NCBI GenBank assembly: GCA_902800965.1
Contig: CADCGK010000012.1
Coordinates: 155,820-219,819 of the forward strand
Origin: an uncultured Bacteroidia bacterium
GTDB taxonomy: Bacteria; Bacteroidota; Bacteroidia; Bacteroidales; F082
DNA length: 64,000 nucleotides
Direction of reading: 5' to 3'
Numbering within the stretch: the stretch's first letter is position 1; each line of letters opens with the position of its first letter. The position numbers were made by a program, and so were the translations under genes. The notes under the pieces were generated by a model, which had not been told where the DNA came from, made no database searches, and was given only the letters and a program-made list of their open reading frames with translations. Positions 7,169 to 54,700 of this stretch are shown one piece after another.

Positions 7169-7558
7169 ATGAAAAAAGATTTGATAAAAGAGGCAAGACG
7201 TTATGTTGACAATGCAGAGAAGACACTTTCGGAAAACGGACGTTACAATCCTGAACTGAAACTGTATGAGGATGAAAAATACGTACGGGCGGCGGGACAT
7301 TACCTGTGGCATGCTGTACTGATGGCCTTGGATGCGGTATTTCATGTGAGGGCCGACCGACGCACCCGTGTGGCCGTTGACGACTATTACGAAGCGGTAA
7401 GAAAAAGGGACCGCAAGTTACTTGCTTTGGTAAACAGCAGCTATAACGTCATGCACTTGTCTATGGACTATGATGGCACTCCAAGCAAAAGCATTTGTAG
7501 CGAAGGAATCCGTCTTGCCAACGATATCATCGACCGTTGCGCTAAGATGTTGGCATAG
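7169..7558 (+). CDS. DUF5618-like small helical protein (copy 1)
   Basis: 129 aa, MKKDLIKEARRYVDNAEKTL...HYLWHAVLMALDAVF... It is about 81% identical at the protein level to 15536..15925. The family assignment is from memory of Bacteroidales DUF5618 proteins. Confidence 0.6.
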   Translation: MKKDLIKEARRYVDNAEKTLSENGRYNPELKLYEDEKYVRAAGHYLWHAVLMALDAVFHVRADRRTRVAVDDYYEAVRKRDRKLLALVNSSYNVMHLSMDYDGTPSKSICSEGIRLANDIIDRCAKMLA

Positions 7559-8459
7559 CATTCAAAACCGCTGAAACAGGGTCTTTCCCTACCTTTTTCA
7601 GCAGATTTGAGCGGTATTTCATCACCGTGTTTTGGCTTAATTCTAGGATTTCAGCTTCTTCTTTGATGCGGAATTCGAGGAAGTTAAGGATCAATAAGTC
7701 GTATTCCTGCTCGCTCAAGTCGGGATAGGTGGTTTTTAGCCGCTCGTAGGCTTTGGGATAAGTGGCATTGAAGGCTTCGATAATGCGTTTACGCTGGCTC
7801 CCTCGTGAAAGGACTTCCCTGGCCTGCCGTTGGAGATTCTCGAAAGTCTGCCGTTCGATGGCGGATTGCGCCTCGTTCAATTGTTGGTCAAAAGCCTCAC
7901 GTTCTTGGTCGTACGCCCTGCGTTGTTGGTTGTTGGTTTTACGCAACTGAAGCAACACCCATCCCATCACCAAAAGCCCCAACAAGGCTCCTGCTCCGAT
8001 AAGCAGGTATCGCTGGCGGGCATGCTTCCGTTCTTGGTTAAGGGAAAGGTCGTAGTTATCCGCCAAGAACAGCGCATATTCGTTGATTTTCGGCGTGTCG
8101 CCTTGAGCAATGGCGATATCGAGCAGATATCTTGCTGCGGTCATCTTTTCATCTGTGTCGGTTAAAAACACTTGTTCCAGATAGACTTTGGCAGAATCCT
8201 GTTGTCCTTCGAAATAGAAGTCGGTGCCAATGTTCAGCCGATGTTCTGGGTTATCAGTTGGATGAGCACTTATGGGGTTAGTAATAAAGAGGACGACAGC
8301 CGTCATTGCGAGCGAAACGCAGTGGAGCGCGGCAATCCAACCTGACCCAAAATAGCCAAGACAACTCAGGTTGGATTGCTTCGTCGTTCCTCCTCGCAAT
8401 GACGAAGGCAATGCTAACCTTCTGATAAAAAGCCATATATTCTTCAGCAGTTGCCTCAT
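7542..8459 (-). CDS. truncated TPR/TM/coiled-coil/LuxR-like HTH membrane protein (5' end built from a repeat element)
   Basis: The C-terminus LSEQEYDLLILNFLEFRIKEEAEILELSQNTVMKYRSNLLKKVG is a LuxR/GerE-type HTH pattern. One TM segment is present (YLLIGAGALLGLLVMGWVLL). The first ~45 codons are encoded by the palindromic element at 8301..8404. The start is uncertain: ATG at 8459, or the ATG inside the element near 8305. Confidence 0.55.
   Translation of the reverse strand: MRQLLKNIWLFIRRLALPSSLRGGTTKQSNLSCLGYFGSGWIAALHCVSLAMTAVVLFITNPISAHPTDNPEHRLNIGTDFYFEGQQDSAKVYLEQVFLTDTDEKMTAARYLLDIAIAQGDTPKINEYALFLADNYDLSLNQERKHARQRYLLIGAGALLGLLVMGWVLLQLRKTNNQQRRAYDQEREAFDQQLNEAQSAIERQTFENLQRQAREVLSRGSQRKRIIEAFNATYPKAYERLKTTYPDLSEQEYDLLILNFLEFRIKEEAEILELSQNTVMKYRSNLLKKVGKDPVSAVLNAMPTS
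8301..8404. repeat. palindromic REP/MITE-like element, family 1, full-length copy
   Basis: The left arm is CGTCATTGCGAG...GCAATCCAACCTGA, the loop is ~20 nt (CCCAAAATAGCCAAGACAAC) and the right arm is TCAGGTTGGATTGC...CTCGCAATGACG. The arms are reverse complements at both termini. Confidence 0.85.
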
Positions 8460-8472
8460 GCCCAAATCATTC

Positions 8473-11613: not shown

Positions 11614-11670
11614 AACGGCGAATTTTACGAATTAAGCGAATTATTCGTAAAATTCGTAAAATTCGCCGTT
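11614..11670. repeat. CGAATT-word palindromic element, family 2 (complete hairpin)
   Basis: AACGGCGAATTTTACGAAT...ATTCGTAAAATTCGCCGTT is a perfect 19-bp inverted repeat. It lies between the LRR gene stop and the lipoprotein gene start. Confidence 0.8.
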
Positions 11671-11674
11671 ACTC

Positions 11675-13780
11675 TTATCTTTTCACAAACTTGATTGTTC
11701 GATTATTCACGTTGATGAAATACATTCCATTGGGTAAGGATGAAACATCGATAGTCAGATTGGATTGCTTCGTCGCTCCGTTCGGCTCCGCTCCTCGCAA
11801 TGACGTACCCGACCATACCGTTTGACCCTGTAGGTTGATGATGCGATATTCGTCGGATTGGGTTCCTGAGACGGTGATGATGCCCGAGGTGGGATTGGGA
11901 TAGACCTGGAATCCCTCCGCGGTGGGTTCGTCAACATCGTAATGGAAATTGAAATACACCTCGTCACAAGCTGTCTCCGTCGTCTGGATGATCAATTGTC
12001 CATATTGCCACACGCAGCGCATGCCTCCCACGCGATAGTCGTCTCCTTTGGTCATCAAGCGCTCCGGGAAGAAACTGGTTTCGTGGCCGACGCCACAGAT
12101 GATGGTGCCACTGAACAGGTCTTGGGGATCGCTCACTGTGAGGGTCCGATAGGTCTGGCCGTTGTAATCAACCATACCTTCTTCATCCACATGCATTGGT
12201 AAAAGCTCCGTCCCAACCTTGATTTCCCATTCATCACCCACTTGGGCTGCGAAATCATACAACATTGTGAATTCATTCAAGGTCTTGTTCCACCAATACA
12301 CCTTGTTATCACGTTCATAAATGTATTCGTACGACTTCTCCTCATGCAGGTTTTTGTCATAAAGAGTATTGATGCGCACCAAAATATGAACCGGCTCTTC
12401 GTTGACGGTGGTATCGGCTGCATATTCCAAATGCTGGTAAGTGATGCTGCCATCAGCATTCTTGATCTCATAATACCACTCTGTTCCAATAGGGAAGATG
12501 CCCATTTCCACAATGTTGGAAAACCTGTTCCATCCTGGGGCATTTTGGTAGGCTAAAAGTGAGCCTTGAGGCACATAGACGGTAGCACTCCTTGGCACTT
12601 GGTCGAAAGAATGATAATAAACAAGGGTGTCCATTGTTGGTGGAACCGGATTATAGACATAGATTTTCTTCAGTTTCGTACATCTGGAAAAAGCCAATCT
12701 ATCGATGAAGCTGACTGATTCGGGGATGGTCACCTCGCCCATCCACTGGCACATCCCAAACAACCGATAAGGAATGGTATTCATGGACTGGGGAAGGGTA
12801 ACTGTAGAGAATCGGCCATAAATAAAGGCTTCCGGGGCAATGTCGGTCACCGTCTCGGGAATGACCAACGAGCCAGGGTCATTGCAACTGAAGAAAGCAT
12901 GATCTCCGATAGTGGTCACTGAAGATGGGATTTCCGGCATCTTGGTAAGACCGCATTGACCAAAAGCGAAAGGACCAATAGCCAGCACTCCTTCGGGAAT
13001 CACGCTGTTCTTACAGCCAATTACAATGGTATTTGTGAGTTGGTTGATGACACAGTTGTTTTCGGAATAATAAACCGGGTTCCCTTCTTCAACGGATACC
13101 GACTCGATCTTTTCGCAACTATGGAACGGGTTTCTTTCGATTGTGATAACCGAACTGGGAATCTGGACTGCCTCGATATTGTCACAATAGGAAAAAGCAT
13201 CGCCTGAAATGGTAGTTACGGTATTTGGAATTACTACATTGGACAAATTATTATTGTTGCTGAACATGCTGTTCGAGATCACCGTAAGCCCTTCCGGCAA
13301 CACCAATGTTCCAGTCAAACCCGTGGTCAGAAAGCATTGGTTACCGTAGGTTACGTCCTTTTCGGGAAGCACCACCTCGGTCATAAGGTCGCAACGGCAG
13401 AATGCCAAATATCCCACGGTATTCACTGAATTTGGGATGATCACGGTACCGCTCAACAAGGTGCAGAGGTAAAACGCTTGGTTTCCAATGTCCGTGACGG
13501 TATTGGGGATAACCACCGATGTGATGGTGCTTTCACTAAACGCCTCGTCTAAGATTTCTGTCACCGTCCAGTCGGCACCATTGCAGTGGATAGTCTCGGG
13601 AATAACCAAGTCACCAGTGGGTTGAGGAGTGCCTTTGGTTAATCCTATCAGATGGTTGTCTTGATCCAAGATATTGCAAAAGAGCAACTGGCCTGATGGA
13701 GCGTATGCGGTGAAATCATATGCTTTAATGGTGTTGACGGCCAAAACCATCATGAGAATCAGTAAGATTTGCTTTTTCAT
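11675..13780 (-). CDS. BspA-type leucine-rich-repeat surface protein with T9SS C-terminal sorting domain
   Basis: It has repeated IPNTVT(T/D)IGxxAFxxC LRR_5-type units. The C-terminus is FQVYPNPTSGIITVSG...LPNGMYFINVNNRTIKFVKR, a T9SS type A CTD. The ATG is at 13780; the ORF track starts at a TTG at 13786. Confidence 0.8.
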   Translation of the reverse strand: MKKQILLILMMVLAVNTIKAYDFTAYAPSGQLLFCNILDQDNHLIGLTKGTPQPTGDLVIPETIHCNGADWTVTEILDEAFSESTITSVVIPNTVTDIGNQAFYLCTLLSGTVIIPNSVNTVGYLAFCRCDLMTEVVLPEKDVTYGNQCFLTTGLTGTLVLPEGLTVISNSMFSNNNNLSNVVIPNTVTTISGDAFSYCDNIEAVQIPSSVITIERNPFHSCEKIESVSVEEGNPVYYSENNCVINQLTNTIVIGCKNSVIPEGVLAIGPFAFGQCGLTKMPEIPSSVTTIGDHAFFSCNDPGSLVIPETVTDIAPEAFIYGRFSTVTLPQSMNTIPYRLFGMCQWMGEVTIPESVSFIDRLAFSRCTKLKKIYVYNPVPPTMDTLVYYHSFDQVPRSATVYVPQGSLLAYQNAPGWNRFSNIVEMGIFPIGTEWYYEIKNADGSITYQHLEYAADTTVNEEPVHILVRINTLYDKNLHEEKSYEYIYERDNKVYWWNKTLNEFTMLYDFAAQVGDEWEIKVGTELLPMHVDEEGMVDYNGQTYRTLTVSDPQDLFSGTIICGVGHETSFFPERLMTKGDDYRVGGMRCVWQYGQLIIQTTETACDEVYFNFHYDVDEPTAEGFQVYPNPTSGIITVSGTQSDEYRIINLQGQTVWSGTSLRGAEPNGATKQSNLTIDVSSLPNGMYFINVNNRTIKFVKR
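11755..11805. repeat. family 1 element, half copy (right arm)
   Basis: TCAGATTGGATTGCTTCGTCGCTCCGTTCGGCTCCGCTCCTCGCAATGACG matches the right arms at 8367..8404 and 41632..41683. Confidence 0.8.
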
Positions 13781-13801
13781 ATTCAAATTGGATTTAATGA
13801 T

Positions 13802-15976: not shown

Positions 15977-16633
15977 ATGGAAGAAATCATCACCTTTCTC
16001 ACCAATGTGCTCCACAACAACAACCGCGAATGGTTTCACGAGCACAAACAGGAATACCAAAGCGCCCAGACGAAGTTTAACGCCATCGCCGAACAGATCA
16101 TCGACGGTGTGGCCCAATTCGACCCTGACATGCAAGGGTTAACGCTGAAAGATTGCACCTACCGCTTTTACCGCGACACCCGCTTCTCTTCTGACAAACG
16201 GCCTTACAAGACCCATTTCGGGGTTTTCGTGTGCAAAGGCGGAAAGAAGTCGATGCTCAGTGGGTATTATTTTCAGGTACAGCCTAGGGAATCAGAGGAC
16301 TATTTCAGCGGCAACATGCTCTGCACGGGTATGTACATGCCTTATCCCGAGACTTTGAAAAGCGTCCGTGAGGAAATTCTATACAATGGCGAACCCTTGC
16401 AGAAAGCCATCAATAAGGCCAAAGGCTTCACGCTGGATACACACAGCGCCTTGAAACGGGTACCTAACGGCTATCCCAAAGACCATCCATACGCTGAGTA
16501 TTTAAAGCAACGCGATTACCTGCTGGTCAAAGAAGTGGATGACAAACACCTCTACAGTCCAAACCTCGTGGAATGGGTGCTGGAGGAGTTCAAGAAGACC
16601 AAGGACTTTTGCCAGTGGCTCAATCAAGGTTAG
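15977..16633 (+). CDS. DUF2461 (TIGR02453) family protein
   Basis: The motifs NNREWFHEHK and YRFYRDTRFSSDKRPYKTHFG are typical of DUF2461. The ATG at 15977 is preferred over the TTG at 15953. Confidence 0.8.
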   Translation: MEEIITFLTNVLHNNNREWFHEHKQEYQSAQTKFNAIAEQIIDGVAQFDPDMQGLTLKDCTYRFYRDTRFSSDKRPYKTHFGVFVCKGGKKSMLSGYYFQVQPRESEDYFSGNMLCTGMYMPYPETLKSVREEILYNGEPLQKAINKAKGFTLDTHSALKRVPNGYPKDHPYAEYLKQRDYLLVKEVDDKHLYSPNLVEWVLEEFKKTKDFCQWLNQG

Positions 16634-16714
16634 AGGTGAGAAGTGAGAGGTGAGAGGTGAAAAAAACCTCTAACCTCTAACCTCTAACCTTTAACCTCTC
16701 ACCTCTGACCTCTC
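16632..16714. terminator. inverted heptamer arrays (AGAGGTG)n / (TAACCTC)n between convergent genes; probable bidirectional terminator
   Basis: AGAGGTGAGAAGTGAGAGGTGAGAGGTGA, then A6, then CCTCTAACCTCTAACCTCTAACCTTTAACCTCTCACCTCTGACCTCT. The right array also encodes the last residues (SEVRG) of the EF-G paralog. Confidence 0.55.
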
Positions 16715-27993: not shown

Positions 27994-29355
27994 ATGGCAA
28001 CCAAGGAAAAAAGCGTATTCTTCTGCAAGTCGTGCGGCAACGAGTCGCCGAAATGGTTCGGTAAATGCCCTGCCTGCGGCGAGTGGAACACGTGCGTGGA
28101 AGAGAAAGAAGTAAGAAGCAAGAAGCAAGAAGACAGAAGACAGAAGACAGAAGTCGTTCCAATGCCGATTAAAGAAATAACAAACGCTGAGGAACAACGC
28201 ATTACACTTCCTTTTGAGGAACTGAACAGAGTGTTAGGTGGTGGATTGGTGCTGGGATCGTTGGTGCTGGTGGGCGGCGAGCCGGGTATTGGAAAATCGA
28301 CCTTGCTCCTGCAGACGGCCTTGCAGCTGAGTGGCAAGAGGGTGCTTTACATCTCCGGCGAGGAGAGCCAAAACCAGATCAAGATGCGCGCCGACCGTGT
28401 GGGCATCCATAACGAGAACTGCCTCATCCTCACCGAGACCGACACCAAGGAGATCCTGAAACACTTCAAGGACGTGCAGCCCGACATCGTCATCATCGAC
28501 TCCATCCAGACGTTGAGCTCGCCCTACGTCGATGCTACGGCGGGCACCATCAGCCAGATCCGCGAGACCGCTGCCGAGATGAACAAGATCGCCAAGACCT
28601 ACCAGGTGCCCGTGTTCCTCATCGGCCACATCACCAAGGACGGCAGCATCGCCGGTCCCAAGATCTTGGAGCATATCGTCGATACCGTCTTGCAGTTCGA
28701 GGGCGACCGTCATTACGGCTTCCGCATCCTTCGCACCATCAAGAATAGGTTCGGTTCCGCTTCGGAGCTGGGCATCTTCGAGATGAACGCCAACGGCCTG
28801 CGCGAAGTCACCAACCCCAGCGAGTTCCTACTCTCGCAGCGCGACGAGGAGGTGAGCGGCATCGCCATCGCTGCCACCATGGAGGGACAGCGTCCCATGC
28901 TCATTGAGACCCAGGCCTTGGTAAGCACCGCGGCCTACGGCACCCCGCAACGTTCCAGCACTGGTTTCGACACCCGCAGGATGAACATGTTGCTGGCCGT
29001 GTTGGAGAAACGCGCCGGCTTCCGTCTGAGCATGAAGGACGTGTTCCTCAACATCGCTGGCGGCATCCGCAGCGACGATCCCGCCTTGGACCTCTCCGTA
29101 GTCGCCGCCGTGCTCTCGTCCAACGCCGACATCCCCATCGACAATCGCACTGCCTTCGCTGCTGAGGTGGGCCTCTCGGGTGAGATCCGCGCCGTTACCC
29201 GCATTGAGGCACGCATCGCCGAGGCCGACAAACTCGGCTTCGAGAAGATCTTCATTTCCAAATACAACGCCAAAGGCCTCGACACCCAACGTTTCCACAT
29301 CGAGGTGGTGCCAGTAGCCACGGTTTACGACCTGGCTACCGAGTTGTTTGGATAA
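27994..29355 (+). CDS. radA: DNA repair protein RadA
   Basis: It has a zinc finger (CKSCGNESPKWFGKCPACGEW), the Walker A motif GEPGIGKST, the RadA-specific KNRFG motif and a Lon-like C-terminal domain. Confidence 0.9.
   Translation: MATKEKSVFFCKSCGNESPKWFGKCPACGEWNTCVEEKEVRSKKQEDRRQKTEVVPMPIKEITNAEEQRITLPFEELNRVLGGGLVLGSLVLVGGEPGIGKSTLLLQTALQLSGKRVLYISGEESQNQIKMRADRVGIHNENCLILTETDTKEILKHFKDVQPDIVIIDSIQTLSSPYVDATAGTISQIRETAAEMNKIAKTYQVPVFLIGHITKDGSIAGPKILEHIVDTVLQFEGDRHYGFRILRTIKNRFGSASELGIFEMNANGLREVTNPSEFLLSQRDEEVSGIAIAATMEGQRPMLIETQALVSTAAYGTPQRSSTGFDTRRMNMLLAVLEKRAGFRLSMKDVFLNIAGGIRSDDPALDLSVVAAVLSSNADIPIDNRTAFAAEVGLSGEIRAVTRIEARIAEADKLGFEKIFISKYNAKGLDTQRFHIEVVPVATVYDLATELFG
28106..28155. 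repeat. purine-rich heptamer array (~7 units, incl. 3 perfect AGAAGAC) in-frame in the radA linker
   Basis: AAGAAGTAAGAAGCAAGAAGCAAGAAGACAGAAGACAGAAGACAGAAGTC encodes EVRSKKQEDRRQKTEV, between the Zn finger and the ATPase domain. Confidence 0.7.
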
Positions 29356-36373: not shown

Positions 36374-37573
36374 TTACATCAATTTCTGGTAAAACTGCCA
36401 CCATTTGTCGGGCAGCTCGTTGCGCATGGCCTGTTCATAGTCCTCCACGGAACAAGGGATGAAATGATGCCGCTCGTAACGCGGGTCGTCGGCATGCATG
36501 AACGACATGTCGATCCACCATTTTCCTGTGGTCTTGTGACACAGAAACACGACGTTTTCCTCGCCTTCGCCGATCTGTACGTTGTAACGCTTGAAATCGT
36601 TGCTTTCCGTGGTCGGGAGGTCGTCCTGACGGCTGCTGTAGCCTTCGATGAAATACCATATCATCTCGGCGATCAAGTTGGCCGTGCGGGAGTTGATGTC
36701 GTAATGGGGATTGTATTCAAAGAACCCGATAGAAGAGAGTTTGAAGTTCAATCCTGCATAACGCGTCATACGGCAGGCGTCTTCGCCGTTGAAGCCGTTG
36801 GGCGAGGCGTTCTTCACACCGGGTGCATCGGCGGCACGGAAGGCACTCATGTCGATGCTGACGATGTTGGCGTTACGGATCAGCGGCTCCGTCAGCTCAA
36901 TGTTTTGCTTCAGCGAACCCAGACGATAGGTGTCGAACAACAACTGCTTCATCAGATCGATGCTTTCGGTATCCACATAATACGATTGATATCCGATATT
37001 GGTGAAGTTGAACAGGAAGTTCGGTTGATGCAGGATGATGTGGCTTAAGTAAGAACGGGAGTTCAGTCCTTCGTTGTCGTTGCCCAGGTCAAACAGCGGA
37101 TCGATGGAGGCGATGTTGATCAGCTTTCCCGTGGGCTCATACACCTGATACATCGAATAGGTCATATCCTGGCTTCCTCCGAAGAGGATCGGCAGGATAT
37201 GAAGCTTCAGCAACTCGGTGAGCACCTGGTTTAAGGCATAATAGGTGTCAGAGATTTCCTGGCCGGTCTTGATGTTGCCCAGATCGACTACCTTGACGTT
37301 TTCCCAGTGGTTGAAAAGTTTGTAGAAAGCTTTTCTGATATAGTCGGCACCGTCGGCGCAGCCGTGGTTATCGACGGCGCCACGTTCTTCCTTGATGCCG
37401 ATCAAGGCCAGCTGAAAGCCTTCCAAGTCGGGGAAATCCTCTTCGTTCTTATAGACGGTAAGGGTTTCCCCGAAGGTGTTTTTACCAGGACGGACATTGG
37501 CGGTGAAGCACTTGTCCGGCACCGGCTCCAAAAACAGGCTTATATCCATATAGAATTGCGACAAATATGTCAT
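36374..37573 (-). CDS. arginase/formiminoglutamase-fold protein with degenerate metal-binding motifs
   Basis: The ureohydrolase motifs are colinear but substituted: FGGSQDM in place of GGDHS, SIDPLFD in place of DAHxD, and SIDMSAFRAADAPG in place of SxDxDxxDP. Confidence 0.6.
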   Translation of the reverse strand: MTYLSQFYMDISLFLEPVPDKCFTANVRPGKNTFGETLTVYKNEEDFPDLEGFQLALIGIKEERGAVDNHGCADGADYIRKAFYKLFNHWENVKVVDLGNIKTGQEISDTYYALNQVLTELLKLHILPILFGGSQDMTYSMYQVYEPTGKLINIASIDPLFDLGNDNEGLNSRSYLSHIILHQPNFLFNFTNIGYQSYYVDTESIDLMKQLLFDTYRLGSLKQNIELTEPLIRNANIVSIDMSAFRAADAPGVKNASPNGFNGEDACRMTRYAGLNFKLSSIGFFEYNPHYDINSRTANLIAEMIWYFIEGYSSRQDDLPTTESNDFKRYNVQIGEGEENVVFLCHKTTGKWWIDMSFMHADDPRYERHHFIPCSVEDYEQAMRNELPDKWWQFYQKLM

Positions 37574-37648
37574 CCGCCTGAGGCGGATGATAGCTCTATA
37601 GGAGAGGTGTCACATCACCCTCCTATAGAGCTAGCATCCTACGGATGC
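37571..37648. other. three consecutive hairpins in the DHS-like/arginase-fold intercistronic spacer
   Basis: The hairpins are CATCCGCC-tga-GGCGGATG (which includes the arginase-fold gene start codon), TAGCTCTATAGGAG(A)GGTG-tcacat-CACCCTCCTATAGAGCTA, and GCATCC-tac-GGATGC. Confidence 0.6.
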
Positions 37649-37658
37649 TGTTACCGTA

Positions 37659-38696
37659 TTATTTTTTATATAGTTTCTGCCAGTTCTTATACTCGCGCTC
37701 TTGCCATGGTGCGTTGTGGTAGGCATAGCTGACGATGGCGGGGATGACGGTGGTGCCTTCGGCATAGACCATCTGTTGGAGCTCTTCGCTCACCTTGCCC
37801 CATGAGCCAGCTTCGAGCAGCGTCGATGACGAACAGGCGCCGTCACGCACATCGGCCACGGTGATCTGGATGGCGTATTTGTGCATAGGCACTTCGTGAC
37901 CAAGGATCTCGGCGCAGACGACCGTGTCTTGTGCGAAGTTCTTGGGGGTGCCGCCACCGACCATGAAGAGGCCTGATTGAGGGCTGTTCATCTTGATTTC
38001 AGTCAGCTCGAGGAAGTCGGCCACAGAGTCGATGCTCACGTAAGGCTTGCCGGCTTGCTTGCGGAGCCACTGGTGCTTGCCGATACCGAAACCAGCTGAG
38101 CTGTCGCTGAAGGCGGGGCAGAAGATCGGCACGCCGCATTCGTAGCAGGTCTGGATGAGGCTTTCCTTCTTCACGCCGTGACCGTTGGCCAACCATTTAC
38201 CAACCTCATAGAGGAACTCGCGGCTGCTGTAGGGACGGCACTCCAAGGTGTCGGCCACGTCGCAAGTGGCTTGGTCGCAGGCTTGCAACTCTTCTTCATC
38301 GATAAAGGTATCGTAGATACGGTCGATGTAGAGTTCACGGAGCTTTGTATCGGGAATGACATTCTCCTTGGTGCCGATGTAATGCTTGTAACCAAGGGCT
38401 TCGAAGAGGTCCATGTCGATGATGCTGGCACCTGTACTGACCACGGCGTCCACCATCTTGTTGCGAACCATCTCAACATACACCTGCATGCAGCCAGCTG
38501 CTGAAGTGGAACCGGCAATGGTGAGGATGTTGGTGCAGTCTTTCTCTGCGATCATCTGGCAAAGGATGTCAGCGGCACGAGCCGTGTCACGCGAAGTGAA
38601 CGACATCTTGCGCATGGCATTGATCAATTCAGTTGAGTCATACTTTTTGATGTCGATGTGTTCGACAACGTCTTTCAGAAGGTCTTTTTTTTCCAT
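37659..38696 (-). CDS. deoxyhypusine synthase family protein (homospermidine-synthase-like)
   Basis: 345 aa. The segments AGSTSAAGC...VSTGASIIDMD and GGGTPKNF match a deoxyhypusine-synthase-like Rossmann pattern. Confidence 0.7.
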   Translation of the reverse strand: MEKKDLLKDVVEHIDIKKYDSTELINAMRKMSFTSRDTARAADILCQMIAEKDCTNILTIAGSTSAAGCMQVYVEMVRNKMVDAVVSTGASIIDMDLFEALGYKHYIGTKENVIPDTKLRELYIDRIYDTFIDEEELQACDQATCDVADTLECRPYSSREFLYEVGKWLANGHGVKKESLIQTCYECGVPIFCPAFSDSSAGFGIGKHQWLRKQAGKPYVSIDSVADFLELTEIKMNSPQSGLFMVGGGTPKNFAQDTVVCAEILGHEVPMHKYAIQITVADVRDGACSSSTLLEAGSWGKVSEELQQMVYAEGTTVIPAIVSYAYHNAPWQEREYKNWQKLYKK

Positions 38697-38718: not shown

Positions 38719-38750
38719 ATAATTCGCTTAATTCGTTTAATTCGCCGTTA
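38719..38750. repeat. family 2 element, half copy (reverse orientation)
   Basis: Its reverse complement TAACGGCGAATTAAACGAATTAAGCGAATTAT matches 11614..11645 and 61966..61994. It covers the topA stop codon. Confidence 0.7.
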
Positions 38751-41087: not shown

Positions 41088-41202
41088 ATCATTAAATTAT
41101 CGGCGGCAAAATTAGTAGAATAAATGCGCATAAAGGATAAAAAACGGAAAAAAATTATTAGTTTATTATAAATAAACTATGTGTGATTTATATTTTTGCG
41201 TC

Positions 41203-42018
41203 ATGAAAACATGGATGGATATCGCAGTCAAGGCTGCCCGTTTGGCGGGTGAAGCCATCATGGAGGTTTATGCACAGCCTTTCGAGGTTTATACGAAAGA
41301 TGACGCCTCGCCGGTGACCCAAGCGGATCTGAGGGCCAGCAACATCATCAAGGAGACGCTGAAAGAGACGGGGTTGCCTTTTGTCAGCGAGGAGGACTTG
41401 CCTCCTGACCGTTCGCAATTCGGCCGTTATTGGCTGGTGGATCCCCTGGACGGCACCGCCGAGTTCGTGAAACGCAACGGCGAATTCACGGTCAACATCG
41501 CTCTGATTGAAAACAAAAGACCTGTCTTAGGGGTAATTTATGCGCCCGTGACGGGACAACTTTGGGCGGCACTTCGTCATTGCGAGGGAGGAACGACCGA
41601 AGCAATCCAACCTGACTCAAGCCAAGGACAACTCAGGTTGGATTGCCACGTCGCTCCGCAAAGCTTCGCTCCTCGCAATGACGAACGACCCTTTACCGTT
41701 CTTGTTAGTCGCTCTCACCGCACCCCCGAGGTGGATGCCTACATCGACAAGGTGTTGCGTCCTGCTCATCCCGATTTAGTTATTGACAGCCAAGGCAGCA
41801 GCCTGAAGTTCGCCCGTCTGGTGGATGGTACCGCCGACGTGTATGTCTGTTACAGCAAGACCAAGGAATGGGACACAGCCGCAGCTGATGCTATCCTTAC
41901 CGCTGCTGGCGGCAAGGTCTTAAGGATCAGTGACGGCATGCCGCTGGAATACGACAAAGAGGATTATCCCAATCCCCCTTTCGTTGCTTGGGCACCGAAT
42001 CCTATTTTTTTCGCTTGA
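41203..42018 (+). CDS. inositol monophosphatase family / 3'(2'),5'-bisphosphate nucleotidase CysQ-like, carrying an in-frame repeat-element insertion
   Basis: The IMPase motifs SEED and WLVDPLDGTAEF are present. Codons for LRHCEGGTTEAIQPDSSQGQLRLDCHVAPQSFAPRNDE are encoded by the palindromic element at 41575..41683. The start at 41203 is preferred over 41179 because a TATTTTTG box sits at 41191..41198. Confidence 0.75.
   Translation: MKTWMDIAVKAARLAGEAIMEVYAQPFEVYTKDDASPVTQADLRASNIIKETLKETGLPFVSEEDLPPDRSQFGRYWLVDPLDGTAEFVKRNGEFTVNIALIENKRPVLGVIYAPVTGQLWAALRHCEGGTTEAIQPDSSQGQLRLDCHVAPQSFAPRNDERPFTVLVSRSHRTPEVDAYIDKVLRPAHPDLVIDSQGSSLKFARLVDGTADVYVCYSKTKEWDTAAADAILTAAGGKVLRISDGMPLEYDKEDYPNPPFVAWAPNPIFFA
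41575..41683. repeat. family 1 element, full-length copy inside the cysQ-like ORF
   Basis: The sequence is CGTCATTGCGAGGGAGGAACGACCGAAGCAATCCAACCTGA, loop CTCAAGCCAAGGACAAC, then TCAGGTTGGATTGCCACGTCGCTCCGCAAAGCTTCGCTCCTCGCAATGACG. It has the same termini and a similar loop to 8301..8404. Confidence 0.85.
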
Positions 42019-42556
42019 TGGTATGTTTAATCTTAACTGCCATAAAGTTTAATTCTATTGAAGATTCTGATTCGGACACCCCCGAATCATTCGATAATAA
42101 ATCGCCAAGTAGTTCTCCTGCTCTTGATATTAGACTTTTTTGCTTTGTCGTGTCTATTTCATTTTGGATGGATTGAAGGTTCTTTGCCAGTTCGTGAACC
42201 TTGGCAAATGTTTCAATAATCATCAAAGTGGTTTGCGTGGCTATTGGACTTTTTAAGATGGTGGCGAGCATATAAAGACCTTTTTCGGTAAAAGCTTTTG
42301 GCTCCAAGGTGGAATTCTTGAGTGGTTTCATCCGGTCGAAATTTTCGACCACATACTGTTTTTCAGCAGGTTGTAACGTGAAATAGTATCCTTCTGGAAA
42401 CTTTTCTAAATTGTTTCTTACCGCTTCGTTAACACGCTTAGTTTCCACGCCATATAACTCAGCTACATCTCTGTCAATTAAGATCTCTTGACCTCGTAAA
42501 ACGATAAATCTTTCTTCAATTATTTCGGTACTAATACGATTGCTTTGTTTCTTCAT
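42002..42556 (-). CDS. ORF6N (KilA-N-like) domain-containing protein
   Basis: The segment IVLRGQEILIDRDVAELYGVETKRVNEAVRNNLEKFPEGYYFTL is the typical ORF6N N-terminal domain. Its 3' end overlaps the cysQ-like gene by 17 nt. Confidence 0.7.
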   Translation of the reverse strand: MKKQSNRISTEIIEERFIVLRGQEILIDRDVAELYGVETKRVNEAVRNNLEKFPEGYYFTLQPAEKQYVVENFDRMKPLKNSTLEPKAFTEKGLYMLATILKSPIATQTTLMIIETFAKVHELAKNLQSIQNEIDTTKQKSLISRAGELLGDLLSNDSGVSESESSIELNFMAVKIKHTIKRKK

Positions 42557-44671: not shown

Positions 44672-44675
44672 CTCT

Positions 44676-44706
44676 CGTCATTGCGAAGAGAAACGACGGC
44701 TGTCGT
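44676..44706. repeat. family 1 element, short terminal fragment
   Basis: CGTCATTGCGAAGAGAAACGACGGCTGTCGT matches the CGTCATTGCGAGCGAAACG terminus, and the adjacent GACGACAGCCG flank seen at 8292..8302 is present here inverted. It is intergenic, 5 nt from the deiminase stop. Confidence 0.55.
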
Positions 44707-44710
44707 GCTC

Positions 44711-47008
44711 TTATTTTACCACTAATTTCCTGGTCTCCACAGCACCATTCTGGTTGATAATATTGACCAGATAGATGCCTTTGTTCCAGTTGACAGCGTC
44801 GATGCCAATCTCTTTGCCTTCAGCTTCGTAAACCTTCTGTCCCACAAGGTTATACACCTCCACCTTGGCCACATTCACGTTTTCCACGATGAACTGACCT
44901 GAGGTCGGGTTGGGATAGAGCTTTGTCTCGGCGGAGATTTCGGTGACGCTCACGAGTGTTTCATCGACTGTGACTGCAAATTCCAGTCTTCCATCACTTG
45001 ATTCCACGAAAACAAAAGTGGTAATTTGGCCTTTGGCGGTTTGGGCATTAGGCCTCACAGTGAATCGGAAAGATTCACCACCGCTTAAAGTATAAGGCAG
45101 TTCGTGTTCAGGAGTAATTTCCAAATAGGATATTCCTAAGGGATTCTCAACCTCGTAGATATCGGTAATCACAATAGGAGCACCCGTACCATAGTTGCCA
45201 TTGACCACGTAAGGAATGGCTTGGGGTTCGTTGACGGTCAACTCAACGACAGGAGCACCCGGGATATACAAGCCCATGTCATAGGCCTCACTGACCACCA
45301 TAGCCACCACATTCTTAGTTCCTACAGTGGTATTGATCTCAATATTGTATGCAAGATAATCGTCTTTCAATGGAGCATATTGCAGACCTACCACCACTGT
45401 GACGGACTCACCAGGTTGAAGCGTGACGGGAAGAGAAGGTTCCCAAATGTTCAGGGCACCACCTTCAGGTTCGATTTCCTGAATAGTGACCGCCTCGGTA
45501 TTATCGTTGATGATGGTAAAGGTTCTATCTTGACCCATCTGATCGAACCATAAGGTATCTGGAGTGATCACCACATTGCCTGAGGGATTGAAGCCTCCCA
45601 CGATGAATTGGTGGGGATCCAGTTCGGCAAATACCGGCTGAGTATAACGGTGATTCGACTCATCGGCGCCAAACACATAGTAGCTAATGGTGTCGCCACT
45701 TTGATAGCCAGTGATGTAGCCGACATATTCATCGGGATTGCCAGTAGTGGTCATGTGTGCCACCTGATAATCGTCACTATTGATTTTATAGTAAACAAGA
45801 AGTGAATCCTGCTTCAGCTCTTGTCCACTGTAAGCGATGAACTTGCTGACCACGGGATAGGCAGCCTGCCATTCCTGCTCACCATGAAGCACCTCGCGGT
45901 GATCCACAAACAGCATGTGGAAGTCCATCACGCCACGGGTACGGCAGTGGAGAGCATCGGTGTTTTCCCAGCTAATAGAGTAGTCGTAATTATAAACTGG
46001 AACAATATTGTAGCCTGGCATGGCCTGTTGATACACTTGGATGGCTTGGGTGTTATAGTTAGCAATGTCGCCCATGGGTACATATACCGATTTATTGAGG
46101 ATCAAACTATTGGTATAAGGAGCAAGGGTAGAACCGCCTGGTTCCTGGACACGATAGACCTTATAAGGATAACCCCAGCAGCAGTTGGTGGTCTCAAAGT
46201 ATTGGGCTACTTGTTCATAATATGGGTAACGCGGATTGCTTTGAGGCAACTGGGCAATCAAAATCTTGTCTGGAGCAAGGTATTTACCCCAGCAATCAAC
46301 GTGAGCAATGTAGTCACCTTGCGGGTCGATGGTGATATGATAGGGATCGATGCCGAGATACTCGCGCATCTTTTGACGTACATTGGGTTCGTTGTTGCCG
46401 TTTTCATTCAAAATAAGCTCATCACTCACACCGTGACCGCGGCCGTCTTCCATCATGTTGCCACCGGTGTGTTCCAAATTCATGCCGTACATCGGGATGT
46501 TCCAATAGTTGGCGAACACCTGCGACATGTTGTCATCGTTGGGACGTGGACGGTTGTAGCGATTATCGACAATGGCGGGATGACGGTCTTCAAAGATATA
46601 CCACGGACCGTAGTCGCGCACCCAGTAAGAATCGCTCGGGGCATTCACAAAGGTGACATTGCTCATGTTAACGCCGGCATTCTGGAAACTGTTTTGGGCA
46701 CTGCTCTGATAGGAAGAACTGACAATGCAATACACTTGACAGTTGTTTGCCAAATCCACCACGAGGCTGGTGGGGATGCCCAGGGGGTAACGGATCATAA
46801 CGCCCTGCATCGGCTCGAACTCGCCCACAAAACGCGGCTCACCTGTCGGAGGTGGGGTTTCAGTGAAGTTTTCATTTCTGACTGGAGTGTACATCTCTTC
46901 TTCAGAGAGATAGTGCCAACGTGCCCAGTCTGGTTTGCGGTTTTGGGCTTGAACTGTCATTACAGCAGCCAAAGCGATGATAGTGACAAAGGAGAAAAAT
47001 TTTTTCAT
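44711..47008 (-). CDS. Porphyromonas-type peptidylarginine/agmatine deiminase family protein with T9SS C-terminal sorting domain
   Basis: It has a signal peptide and the guanidino-modifying motifs YWVRDYGPWYIF, IAHVDCW, YTNSLILN and the catalytic-Cys context DALHCRTRG. About 300 aa of beta-rich repeats follow. The C-terminus is KLYPNPTSGQFIV...GIYLVNIINQNGAVETRKLVVK. Confidence 0.8.
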   Translation of the reverse strand: MKKFFSFVTIIALAAVMTVQAQNRKPDWARWHYLSEEEMYTPVRNENFTETPPPTGEPRFVGEFEPMQGVMIRYPLGIPTSLVVDLANNCQVYCIVSSSYQSSAQNSFQNAGVNMSNVTFVNAPSDSYWVRDYGPWYIFEDRHPAIVDNRYNRPRPNDDNMSQVFANYWNIPMYGMNLEHTGGNMMEDGRGHGVSDELILNENGNNEPNVRQKMREYLGIDPYHITIDPQGDYIAHVDCWGKYLAPDKILIAQLPQSNPRYPYYEQVAQYFETTNCCWGYPYKVYRVQEPGGSTLAPYTNSLILNKSVYVPMGDIANYNTQAIQVYQQAMPGYNIVPVYNYDYSISWENTDALHCRTRGVMDFHMLFVDHREVLHGEQEWQAAYPVVSKFIAYSGQELKQDSLLVYYKINSDDYQVAHMTTTGNPDEYVGYITGYQSGDTISYYVFGADESNHRYTQPVFAELDPHQFIVGGFNPSGNVVITPDTLWFDQMGQDRTFTIINDNTEAVTIQEIEPEGGALNIWEPSLPVTLQPGESVTVVVGLQYAPLKDDYLAYNIEINTTVGTKNVVAMVVSEAYDMGLYIPGAPVVELTVNEPQAIPYVVNGNYGTGAPIVITDIYEVENPLGISYLEITPEHELPYTLSGGESFRFTVRPNAQTAKGQITTFVFVESSDGRLEFAVTVDETLVSVTEISAETKLYPNPTSGQFIVENVNVAKVEVYNLVGQKVYEAEGKEIGIDAVNWNKGIYLVNIINQNGAVETRKLVVK

Positions 47009-52511: not shown

Positions 52512-52546
52512 TCTGGTTGGATTGCTTCGCTGCGCTCGCAATGACG
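52512..52546. repeat. family 1 element, half copy
   Basis: TCTGGTTGGATTGCTTCGCTGCGCTCGCAATGACG is intergenic, 14 nt beyond the mutB stop. Confidence 0.75.
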
Positions 52547-52559
52547 CGAAGCGTGGCTA

Positions 52560-54566
52560 TTAGGCCTGTTTCCTTGCGGCGATCAACAGATCCAGCATTT
52601 TGATGGCCGAGTCGCTGATGACCGTGCCAGGGCCAAAGATGGCCACGGCACCAGCATCATAGAGGAACTGATAGTCCTGAGCGGGAATCACGCCACCCAC
52701 GGTGACCATGATGTCGGGACGACCCAACTTCTCCAGCTCAGCGATCACCTGAGGCACGAGAGTCTTGTGACCAGCAGCCAGCGAACTCACGCCCATGATG
52801 TGGACGTCGTTCTCAACGGCTTGCTTGGCAGCCTCGGCGGGTGTCTGGAACAAAGGACCCATATCGACATCGAAGCCAATGTCTGCATAACCGGTGGCCA
52901 CCACCTTGGCGCCACGGTCGTGACCGTCCTGACCCATCTTGGCAATCATGATACGCGGACGACGGCCTTCCAACTTGGCAAACTCGTCGGCCTTACGGCA
53001 GGCCTCCTCAAATCTTGCATCGTTTTTCGTTTCCATAGAATACACTCCTGAAATTGAACGGATTACTGCTTTGTAACGACCAGCGACTTTCTCGCAAGCC
53101 ATCGAAATCTCACCCAGCGAAGCGCGGCACTTGGCGGCTTCGATGGCCAAAGCCAGGAGGTTGCCCTCGCCCGTCTCGGCACACTTGGTGATAGCGTCAA
53201 GGCAACGCTGTACGTCGGCTTCGTTGCGGTTGGCGCGGAGTTCCTTCAGACGCTTGATCTGCGACTCACGCACAGCGGTGTTGTCCACCTCCAAGGTCTC
53301 AATAGGATCCTCATGGTCGAGGCGGTACTTGTTGATACCGACGATGGTCTCGCGACCCGAGTCGATCTTGGCCTGCTTGCGGGCAGCGGCCTCTTCGATA
53401 CGCATCTTCGGCAGACCCGTCTCGATGGCCTTGGCCATGCCACCCATGGCTTCCACCTCTTGGATGTGACCCCAAGCACGGTGGGCGATCTCGTTGGTGA
53501 GGCTCTCCACATAGTAGGAACCTGCCCAAGGATCCACCACACGGCAGATGTTGGTCTCTTCCTGGATGTAGATCTGGGTGTTACGGGCGATACGGGCACT
53601 GAAGTCGGTGGGCAGAGCAATGGCCTCGTCCAAGGCGTTGGTGTGCAGCGACTGGGTGTGACCCAGGGCAGCACCCATAGCCTCGATGCAGGTACGGGCC
53701 ACGTTGTTGAACGGGTCTTGCTCGGTGAGCGACCATCCGGAAGTCTGCGTGTGGGTACGCAGGGCCAGTGACTTGGTGTTCTTCGGGTTGAAGGTGCTGA
53801 CGATCTTGGCCCACAGCATACGGGCGGCACGCATCTTGGCAATCTCCATGAAGTGGTTCATGCCCGAGCACCAGAAGAAGGACAGACGCGGTGCGAAGGC
53901 GTCGATGTCCAAGCCAGCCTTGACACCGGTGCGGAGGTAATCCCAACCGTCGGCCAAGGTATAAGCCATTTCGATATCGGAGGTAGCACCAGCTTCCTGC
54001 ATGTGGTAACCCGAGATGGAGATGCTGTTGAACTTCGGCATGTTCTGCGAGGTGAACTCGAAGATGTCGGCGATGATACGCATCGAGAACTCAGGCGGAT
54101 AGATATAGGTGTTACGCACCATGAACTCCTTCAGGATGTCGTTCTGGATGGTGCCTTGCAACTCTTCGTACTTGGCAACGCCAGCCTTACCCACGTCGCC
54201 CATGACGCGCTCGTGGTCGGCATCGTAGCCACGGTGGGTGGCCAAGTCGAAGGCCACGGACAGACCTTTCTGACCAGCCGCGATGTTACGGCGGTAGAAG
54301 GCGTTTGACTCCTCAGCGGTGGAGAAACCGGCGTACTGACGGATGGTCCAAGGACGCATCACGTACATGGTTGAATAAGGTCCACGGAGGAAGGGGGCGA
54401 TACCAGCGGCGTAGTTGAGGTGTTCCATGCCTTCGAGGTCTTTCTCGGTGTAGGCAGGCTTCACCATAATGTGCTCGTGGGTCTCCCAAGGCTCGCCGTT
54501 AGGCAGGATGATACTGTTGTTCTTAGGTATAGCGTTGATATTGATATCTTTATAATTCGGTTTCAT
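52560..54566 (-). CDS. mutB: methylmalonyl-CoA mutase large (catalytic, B12-binding) subunit, unusually short
   Basis: Diagnostic motifs are [32 protein letters not shown] and [11 protein letters not shown], plus the B12 motif GQDGHDRGA. It is 668 aa. GDVGKAGVA is joined almost directly to GTIQND (see findings). Confidence 0.85.
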
Positions 54567-54604: not shown

Positions 54605-54677
54605 CAGCTGTTAGCTATTAGCAATTAGCTGTTAGCTTACTGGTTGCCAGGCTAATAGCTAACAGCAAACAGCTAAT
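54605..54677. repeat. AGCTNTT-heptamer palindrome in the mutA-mutB spacer
   Basis: GCTGTTAGCTATTAGC (54607..54622) is the perfect reverse complement of GCTAATAGCTAACAGC (54651..54666). The flanks continue the heptamer pattern. Confidence 0.75.
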
Positions 54678-54700
54678 GACCAAAATCTCGCACCCAGTAT

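Follow-up and report, generated by a model that had tools for sequence, protein, structure and literature searches.

A CGTC-tagged palindrome pair in frame within the variable linker of a Bacteroidales cysQ gene: a probable dimer of REP units

In the genome of an uncultured Bacteroidia bacterium (GCA_902800965.1), a gene of the CysQ type carries a long palindrome within its reading frame, and the question raised by this locus is what kind of element this is and how a conserved enzyme comes to carry it. The gene lies on contig CADCGK010000012.1, of which 64,000 nt were analysed (positions 155,820 to 219,819, forward strand; hereafter the window). A first-pass annotation, made from the sequence alone, had described a dispersed palindromic repeat that is tolerated in frame as a peptide, and in this it was right. 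The element is probably a head-to-head dimer of CGTC-tagged repetitive extragenic palindromic (REP) units with an ATTGC stem, non-autonomous and similar in organisation to REPINs, the inverted REP doublets known from other bacteria.

An inverted-repeat search of the window placed a palindrome of 113 nt and two tiers at 41573–41685. Its outer arms (41573–41587 and 41671–41685) are 15 nt each and its inner arms (41602–41615 and 41633–41646) 14 nt each, both pairs being 100% complementary, and the inner arms enclose a loop of 17 nt. Folded as single-stranded DNA (ssDNA) it reached -37.4 kcal/mol (z = -8.8), and none of 200 dinucleotide shuffles was as stable; the terminal inverted repeats and 17-nt loop of the first description were thereby confirmed. 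The palindrome is composed of two units with their CGTC ends outward. The left unit, CGTC/ATTGC-GAGGGAGGAACGACCGAA-GCAAT/CC(A), lies at 41575–41608 on the plus strand, where it was found as a minus-strand match of the search pattern and ends in a CCA tail; the spacer, with complementary ends AACCTGA...TCAGGTT, occupies 41609–41639 and is homologous to the spacer of a second dimer at 8301–8404; and the right unit, also a pattern match, occupies 44 nt at 41640–41683 on the minus strand. As the right unit has a longer interior than the left, the pair is a heterodimer. Inverted repeats, fold, unit matches and translation all place it in frame in cysQ, where it codes for residues ~124–161 of the 271-aa protein.

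The unit pattern that was searched, GGATTGC-N8-38-CTCGCAATGACG, is matched exactly at six places in the window, where 0.00 were expected, and the window's units made up six of eight pattern matches, against 0.24 in shuffles. A full-length copy at 8301–8405 (nhmmer E = 6.6e-12) corresponds to the second head-to-head dimer (8301–8404, with units at 8301–8338 and 8373–8404), which lies in frame in the signal-peptide region of an open reading frame (ORF) at 7542..8465(-). It has the same 14-nt inner arms as the cysQ copy and a common ..ACAACTCAGGTTGG part of the loop, and because homology runs through the spacer, the dimer itself is the entity that was duplicated in this genome. A half copy at 11753–11805 (E = 3.3e-7) is a single unit (11762–11805, plus strand), in frame in the C-terminal sorting domain for the type IX secretion system (T9SS) of ORF 11675..13786(-), where it reads SLRGAEPNGATKQSNL. 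Another single unit, of the minimal 28 nt, is intergenic at 52519–52546 (plus strand), 13 nt beyond the stop of ORF 52560..54566(-), with its CGTC-to-CCA direction on the sense strand of that ORF; its interior, TTCGCTGCG, ranks second in frequency among the units that were retrieved elsewhere, from genomes and from viral contigs. A probable degenerate remnant (CGTCATTGCGAAG..., 44675–44698, plus strand; a 12-nt exact match, E = 0.32) lies just 3' of ORF 44711..47008(-). The last two copies are thus both placed just 3' of stop codons, the classic REP position, as the first-pass annotation had noted when it described them as abutting stops. Its other copies, near 8301, 11755 and 52512, were also recovered, that at 44676 being weak, and its count of three copies out of five inside ORFs with the frame kept stands for the cysQ linker, the sorting-domain loop and the signal peptide. 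Its division into full and half copies stands as far as both sizes exist; the family unit is, however, the half element (28–44 nt), and what had been called full copies are head-to-head dimers.

A further 355 units came from genomes other than this one and from viral contigs, and their fetched flanks were examined; as the genome and viral scans give the matches listed only, all statements on distribution are lower bounds. A unit begins with a CGTC tag that stays unpaired, continues into a hairpin, either ATTGC-GA-GC-NNN-GC-GAA-GCAAT or one with a longer interior, and ends in a CCA tail. CGTC is part of the search pattern, yet the fold leaves it unpaired, and it stands outside the stem in all six window units and in 355/355 fetched units. 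The stem opens with A-T and then T-A (ATTGC...GCAAT) in every unit, and the base following GCAATCC is A in 81% of the 355, all six window units ending in CCA. The commonest unit among the 355, the 28-mer CGTCATTGCGAGCGAAGCGAAGCAATCC, folds into five base pairs, a GA/GAA internal loop and a GC-NNN-GC clamp of the GCGAAGC mini-hairpin type with a 3-nt loop, while longer units have interiors of 16–26 nt. Where units are paired, 73 pairs have their CGTC ends outward against three in the opposite arrangement, and 75 distinct head-to-head dimers were counted with spacers mostly of 19–24 nt. Whether dimers insert at the tips of palindromes that were already there was also considered; complementary flank runs of at least 4 nt occurred at 4 of the 75 dimers against ~0.7 expected, which is too weak for a rule.

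This architecture is that of the CGTC-tagged REPs, a superfamily with four families (CGTC-1 to CGTC-4) defined by Di Nocera, De Gregorio & Rocco (2013; BMC Genomics 14:522; PMC3733652), in which CGTC stands unpaired at the end of the unit, the stem begins with A-T/T-A pairs and a 3-nt tail fits CCA. Such REPs are predominantly head-to-head dimers, with tail-to-tail and head-to-tail pairs rare, lie mostly just 3' of genes and in a minority of cases in frame inside them (Additional file 3 has dozens of in-frame intragenic copies), and, unlike GTAG REPs, have no associated transposase (PMC3733652). CGTC-1 and CGTC-4 of R. conorii are equated there with RPE-6 and RPE-4, two Rickettsia palindromic elements (RPEs), and CGTC-1 of Neisseria with dRS3; occurrence in Bacteroidetes/Chlorobi is reported, Bacteroidales are outside the survey, and bulged or atypical members are stated to have escaped the authors' screen (PMC3733652). 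An established equivalent for the repeat, of which the first-pass annotation knew none, therefore exists in this superfamily, with RPE-4 and RPE-6 among its members. The description of RPE-like behaviour in a Bacteroidota genome was itself apt, both for the in-frame tolerance and for the host (T9SS domains, best matches to proteins of Bacteroidales metagenome-assembled genomes, or MAGs); the repeat is, however, of a known kind.

The units described here share with the superfamily the CGTC tag, the A-T/T-A stem opening, the CCA tail, the lack of a transposase and an occurrence in several phyla. Their dimers are likewise head-to-head, with ~20 nt between the units, and in many cases are heterodimers in which the spacer is conserved. 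The distribution is also alike, most copies lying away from long ORFs and a smaller part standing in frame within genes. The peptides that they encode (RHCE, VIA/VIAS, SLR/SLRA, LAMT, ARND, PRND) are different, being absent from the intragenic list of PMC3733652, and for this reason, together with a noncanonical stem-loop, the ATTGC stem type appears to lie outside the four published families, as an uncatalogued type of a known superfamily. It would thus add an apparently uncatalogued and very widespread sequence type to the CGTC superfamily.

Searches of databases gave no other assignment. No Rfam family reached its gathering threshold anywhere in the window, and the element itself gave only meaningless matches to microRNA precursors at E <= 10. 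The six element translations matched nothing in Pfam or NCBIfam at E <= 10 other than one spurious hit to PhnP, NCBIfam presumably including the RPE1 model (TIGR01045). A literature search by sequence and peptide strings returned only primers and unrelated words, and a BLAST search of plasmids with the 113-mer gave four weak, uninformative matches.

RPE-1 is a protein-coding palindrome of ~150 bp in Rickettsia, and RPEs in general resemble the present element in being palindromic repeats that stand in frame in unrelated proteins and are tolerated as extra peptide. The element translations nevertheless match no model of NCBIfam or Pfam, RPE1 included, and where Rickettsia has a reduced intracellular genome, the present host is a Bacteroidales bacterium, free-living or of the gut. 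Only ~9–13% of the units, moreover, are placed well within stop-free stretches of at least 250 codons (low-GC loci, other genomes). RPE-4 and RPE-6 have the CGTC/CCA architecture (PMC3733652); they differ in having their own stem sequence and in encoding VIPWLDHGI and VIPAKAGI. The GTAG doublets of the REPIN/RAYT system (RAYT, REP-associated tyrosine transposase) are similar in that the non-autonomous inverted doublet, which folds into a single long hairpin, is apparently the replicating entity, but the tag here is CGTC and not GTAG, and no RAYT/HUH transposase stands beside the 355 fetched units. The Neisseria dRS3/NIME repeats (CGTC-1) share the superfamily architecture and differ in being clustered, with a stem ATTCCC-N8-GGGAAT. 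dRS3 also serves as an integration target of phage or IS110-type elements, and no such role was seen here.

The perfect 15-nt terminal inverted repeats and the size of ~110 nt would fit a classical miniature inverted-repeat transposable element (MITE), derived from an insertion sequence (IS) by deletion, moved by a DDE transposase acting on terminal repeats of 12–15 nt (CGTCATTGCGAG) and inserted in situ in cysQ, and TA does precede several orthologous copies. Across the outer flanks of the 355 units there is, however, no target-site duplication and no conserved TA, position -1 being C in 49% and T in 31%, and a TA target-site duplication, hinted at by those few copies, found no support on these flanks. 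Solitary single units also exist, no transposase recurs near the units, none is reported for CGTC REPs in the literature (PMC3733652), and the window and sister alleles differ by a recombination tract (see below) and not by a clean filled or empty site. Apart from phage structural genes on the viral contigs, no gene family recurs within 400 bp of the 355 units. On the fetched flanks and the alleles compared, we consider a MITE origin very unlikely and retain the dimer of REP units.

The gene that carries the dimer, at 41203..42018(+) with an alternative start at 41179, encodes an intact 3'(2'),5'-bisphosphate nucleotidase with its catalytic motifs present. Its score against the TIGR01331 CysQ model is 234.1 bits (cut-off 228.8), and its best solved relative is the CysQ of B. 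thetaiotaomicron (PDB 3b8b, E = 6.4e-52). Within ORF 41179/41203..42018(+) the element reads ...LWAALRHCEGGTTEAIQPDSSQGQLRLDCHVAPQSFAPRNDERPFTVLVSRSH without a stop, the insert peptide reading ...LRHCEGGTTEAIQPDSSQGQLRLDCHVAPQSFAPRNDE..., so that both the cysQ-like identity of the ORF and the in-frame position of the palindrome were upheld. Four of the six frames through the element (two of three per strand) are free of stops, and for this reason it is not very improbable that the ORF should have stayed open. In an AlphaFold2 model (mean predicted local distance difference test, pLDDT, 70.5; predicted TM-score 0.74), which takes the inositol monophosphatase (IMPase) fold (TM 0.74 to 3b8b, Foldseek), the insert is placed as coil between strands 119–124 and 165–168, and pLDDT falls below 50 only in residues 126–157 and in the last five residues. 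The insertion site thus maps to a linker coil, and the insert peptide is predicted to be disordered. A second model, of a short-linker allele, had a mean pLDDT of 59 and was too poor for use.

The same insert length and peptide recur in all 13 variants of the protein within the window's 90% cluster, drawn from many assemblies made independently, which shows that the insert is real and stably inherited. In one JGI contig of 20.6 kb from the same species (P0122), only the 3' 95 codons of cysQ were called, corresponding to ~41731–42018 of the window.

A hairpin of this stability, and the call of 95 aa from the 3' part only in that one assembly (P0122), could also mean that the segment is not translated, being an intervening sequence or the site of a translational hop comparable to the GC-cluster 'byp' elements of yeast mitochondria, or that the gene is a pseudogene. 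Against this, ~110 orthologous alleles with linkers of 19–58 aa are all in frame and stop-free (only proteins called full length were sampled), the catalytic motifs are intact, the CysQ score exceeds the cut-off, the flanks are under strong purifying selection and the allele is identical in the 13 variants. The gene is not visibly a pseudogene, and we find an untranslated segment extremely unlikely; the dimer would rather be translated as a harmless loop of ~38 aa that is selectively near-neutral.

The position of the dimer in CysQ is unusual in its own right. Orthologues of 75–92% identity have near-invariant flanks (..VLGVIYAP before the site and ..PFTVLVSRSH.. after it; the flanking protein is ~90% conserved), between which stand 19–58 unrelated residues. 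At the nucleotide level this hypervariable linker cassette spans 41547..41687(+), a block that cannot be aligned to the sister strain L244, and across the orthologues it is filled with unrelated hairpin or heptamer repeats. A metagenome scan for CysQ relatives returned mostly homologues of 40–47% identity, which were used only to define the native segment. In such distant CysQ proteins, 3b8b included, the site holds an ordinary protein segment, the span from DPLDGT to SRSH (inclusive of SRSH) measuring 70–96 aa with a G.GA beta-hairpin, whereas in this clade it shrinks to ~59 aa where the linker is shortest (19 aa) and measures 87 aa in the window allele. From these lengths it follows that the native beta-hairpin segment was lost in this Bacteroidales clade. 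The ~36 residues that the first-pass annotation took for an insertion are therefore not a plain insertion into a conserved CysQ.

At least five hairpin classes occupy the linker site, four of them confirmed at the DNA level. These are alleles with a CGTC dimer or unit, some with extra hairpins nested within (window, L245, L246, L247, L248); GGAATGC heptamers arranged as a perfect palindrome (L330, -51 kcal/mol, z -8.4; L250, z -9.0); a heptamer palindrome of the GAGGAC type (L331, z -5.4); and another palindrome in L332. Also at the DNA level, one-armed heptamer arrays that do not fold are present in L244 (CTCTCAC x6; -0.2 kcal/mol, z 0.3), L242 and L249, and this hairpin-free array is the commonest class (32/88 orthologues). 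The window linker allele has z -5.0 in the same fold comparison. A further class (ESGKWKVESGK / FSTLHSPLST) and a GAGAGTG-type palindrome in P0075 are inferred from peptides only. Small hairpins are nested inside the CGTC dimers at the orthologous site of L245 (1501–2334), L246 (1501–2340) and L247 (1501–2388); L247 has TTATCGCCTGAAGGCGATGA in the spacer region and L245 a 28-nt block that splits CTCGCAA from TGAC. These suggest repeated insertion, or templated repair, inside existing hairpins.

Such a series raises the possibility that the cysQ linker is selected for a nucleic-acid hairpin, in mRNA or ssDNA between the two gene halves and acting, for example, through translational pausing, mRNA processing or stability, or attenuation, and so recruits any hairpin repeat. 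At least four DNA-confirmed unrelated palindromes do stand at one codon-delimited site (z of -8.4, -9.0 and -5.4 in L330, L250 and L331, and -5.0 in the window), a hairpin with a function would be expected to keep its structure while its sequence changes, and the flanking protein is ~90% conserved. The commonest class is nevertheless the hairpin-free array (L244, z 0.3), L242 and L249 do not fold, no terminator-like T-run is present and distant CysQ proteins have ordinary protein at the site, and we regard selection for the hairpin as unlikely. There is a small chance, assessed for the two ideas jointly, that the linker is a hairpin landing pad and/or that a conserved machinery recognises the CGTC-hairpin-CCA module. 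As a landing pad, the linker could have captured at least five unrelated hairpin classes at one codon-exact site, kept them in frame and swapped them between lineages, and the cause could be either a usefulness of the hairpin as nucleic acid or hairpin-provoked breakage with repair that re-templates the site. As for the machinery, it could account for the few similar 28-mers that dominate in many phyla and in viral contigs. The recombining hairpin cassette in the CysQ linker, and the wide distribution of ATTGC units with a few near-identical 28-mers dominating, are the two unexpected results of this analysis.

Comparison with the sister strain points to how linker alleles change hands. L244, from a contig of 307 kb, is 97.8–98.9% identical to the window around cysQ, with a heptamer array in place of the CGTC dimer; its counterpart of the gene bearing the 8301 copy, presumably P0259 on the same contig, is apparently 99% identical to that of the window. 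Divergence from L244 is raised across 41451..41994(+), with 30 mismatches, 15 of them in 41451–41544 (mostly at third codon positions) and 15 in 41691–41994, against ~1–3 per 100 nt outside. Since the mismatches cluster around the cassette, the tract of ~550 bp is best read as one of homologous recombination that carried the whole cassette, and the alignment indicates that the difference between window and sister alleles is an allelic replacement. CGTC alleles are scattered on a rough neighbour-joining tree of the flanks (nine Fitch changes for ten leaves). Nine independent insertions were rejected as an interpretation, the tree being weak and recombination demonstrated, and the scatter is taken to reflect a shuffling of alleles, with an uncounted share of primary insertions in addition. 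Beside cysQ, an ORF6N-domain gene of 184 aa at 42002–42556(-) overlaps the last 17 nt of cysQ, is not present in the sister loci L244 and L242, and alters the CysQ C-terminus (..APNPIFFA vs ..APGN). P0002 combines the ..APNPIFFA C-terminus with a heptamer linker, from which it follows that the two polymorphisms have reassorted.

Insertion in frame into constrained and unrelated ORFs, the behaviour expected of protein-coding palindromes, was found in cysQ, in the T9SS sorting domain and in the signal peptide. At the element, ORF 11675..13786(-) reads ...SGTSLRGAEPNGATKQSNLTIDVSSLPNGMYF, a net gain of 10 residues after which the conserved IDVSxLPxGMYF motif continues in frame; eleven homologues lack these 10 residues and read QT..TG-I..ENQQIDVS.LP.GMYF. 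Homologues of ORF 7542..8465(-) without the element have the common MRQ..L start and read straight through (MRQRLxxIRLFILVIVCxMALNAVAK.., or MKNIWFLLIGTAIVLLIT.. in P0279), while closer relatives (P0275, P0276, P0278, P0280 and P0281) have versions of the dimer between an MRQ..NIW start and the hydrophobic core, and P0283 has half of the dimer in the signal-peptide region. The terminal ATGACG of the 8301–8404 dimer gives an in-frame ATG (MTAVV...), at which some gene callers start (P0273, P0274). On the minus strand at 8299–8310 it is the CGTC end, read as ATGACG (..GCAATGACG), that supplies this ATG, and the repeat may here remodel the signal peptide or the start codon. Peptides such as RHCE..AIQ, SLRG..KQSN, LDCF.., ..LLAMT and ..ARND in predicted proteins are, on this basis, repeat-derived and not conserved motifs.

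For the dimer of REP units, the following course of events can be proposed. Primary spread would depend on a trans-acting activity that recognises a single-stranded hairpin with its CGTC tag. Copies that reach genes would survive only where the frame is kept, no stop arises and the landing site is a dispensable segment, and the cysQ linker would act as intergenic-like DNA inside a gene, collecting the hairpin and heptamer repeats of each genome. Linker alleles would then move between lineages by homologous recombination, through which the window strain may have gained, or the sister strain lost, the CGTC dimer. Several points weigh against this explanation. No mobilising enzyme and no transposition event was found in the window or in the fetched unit flanks, a neutral permissive-loop model alone leaves the excess of strong-hairpin linker alleles unexplained, and translation of the insert is deduced from frame conservation. 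P0122 might reflect an artefact of gene calling, or else a frameshift or other disruption of the allele in or close to the repeat. The unit itself has five perfect pairs, a G-A-rich internal loop, two G-C pairs and a 3-nt loop, against a perfect stem of 8–9 bp and a loop of 4–5 nt in PMC3733652; the arms of the minimal unit are 9–10 nt but mismatched, and longer forms run to 34–44 nt, so that it falls outside the published stem and loop. The ATTGC type might also be covered already by the atypical loops of 'Bradyrhizobium CGTC-1' that the paper mentions (PMC3733652).

Among the matches listed, genome record titles name Bradyrhizobium and Sphingomonadales (many), Rickettsiales (including Ca. 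Tisiphia) and Gammaproteobacteria, and, within Bacteroidota, Tannerella, Rikenella, Ca. Limimorpha, Chitinophagales and Hymenobacter. Further titles are Melainabacteria, Ignavibacteriota, Armatimonadota, Patescibacteria, Chloroflexota, Eubacteriales and Chitinispirillales; of these, all except the last, together with the viral contigs, are additions of the scan to the superfamily. Most records are MAGs, and single phylum assignments for this reason need care. The CGTC unit also occurs in at least 120 viral contigs (IMG/VR, L001–L120), often beside portal-, terminase- and tail-like genes of high-GC phages, probably alphaproteobacterial, or of regions resembling gene transfer agents. Coding for protein in the manner of the Rickettsia palindromes is a general property of a bacteria-wide superfamily, and it reaches uncultured Bacteroidales, and cysQ offers a natural experiment on the movement and cost of CGTC REPs, with one enzyme, a disordered linker, many hairpin alleles and polymorphism within a species.

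A second class of repeats in the window consists of inverted arrays of tandem heptamers or nonamers, at 16627–16713, 54606–54688, 11614–11670, 38720–38745 and 28103–28153 (AGGTGAG x5 / AACCTCT x7; AGCTATT; ATTCGTAAA; TAATTCGCT; AGAAAGA x7). We know of no description of such arrays in Bacteroidales. They lie mostly between genes or over gene 3' ends, that at 16627–16713 being between convergent ORFs, and the AGGTGAG/CTCACCT type is the sequence of the sister-strain cysQ linker (L244, P0005). As a heptamer family of the linker thus also stands between genes (16627–16713), the linker appears to collect repeat types that are otherwise intergenic. The longest inverted repeat of the window does not belong to the CGTC family and matched nothing in Rfam; it lies at 37564–37660, with arms of 41 nt that are 73% complementary, and two small perfect hairpins stand within it, CATCCGCCTGAGGCGGATG and GCATCCTACGGATGC.

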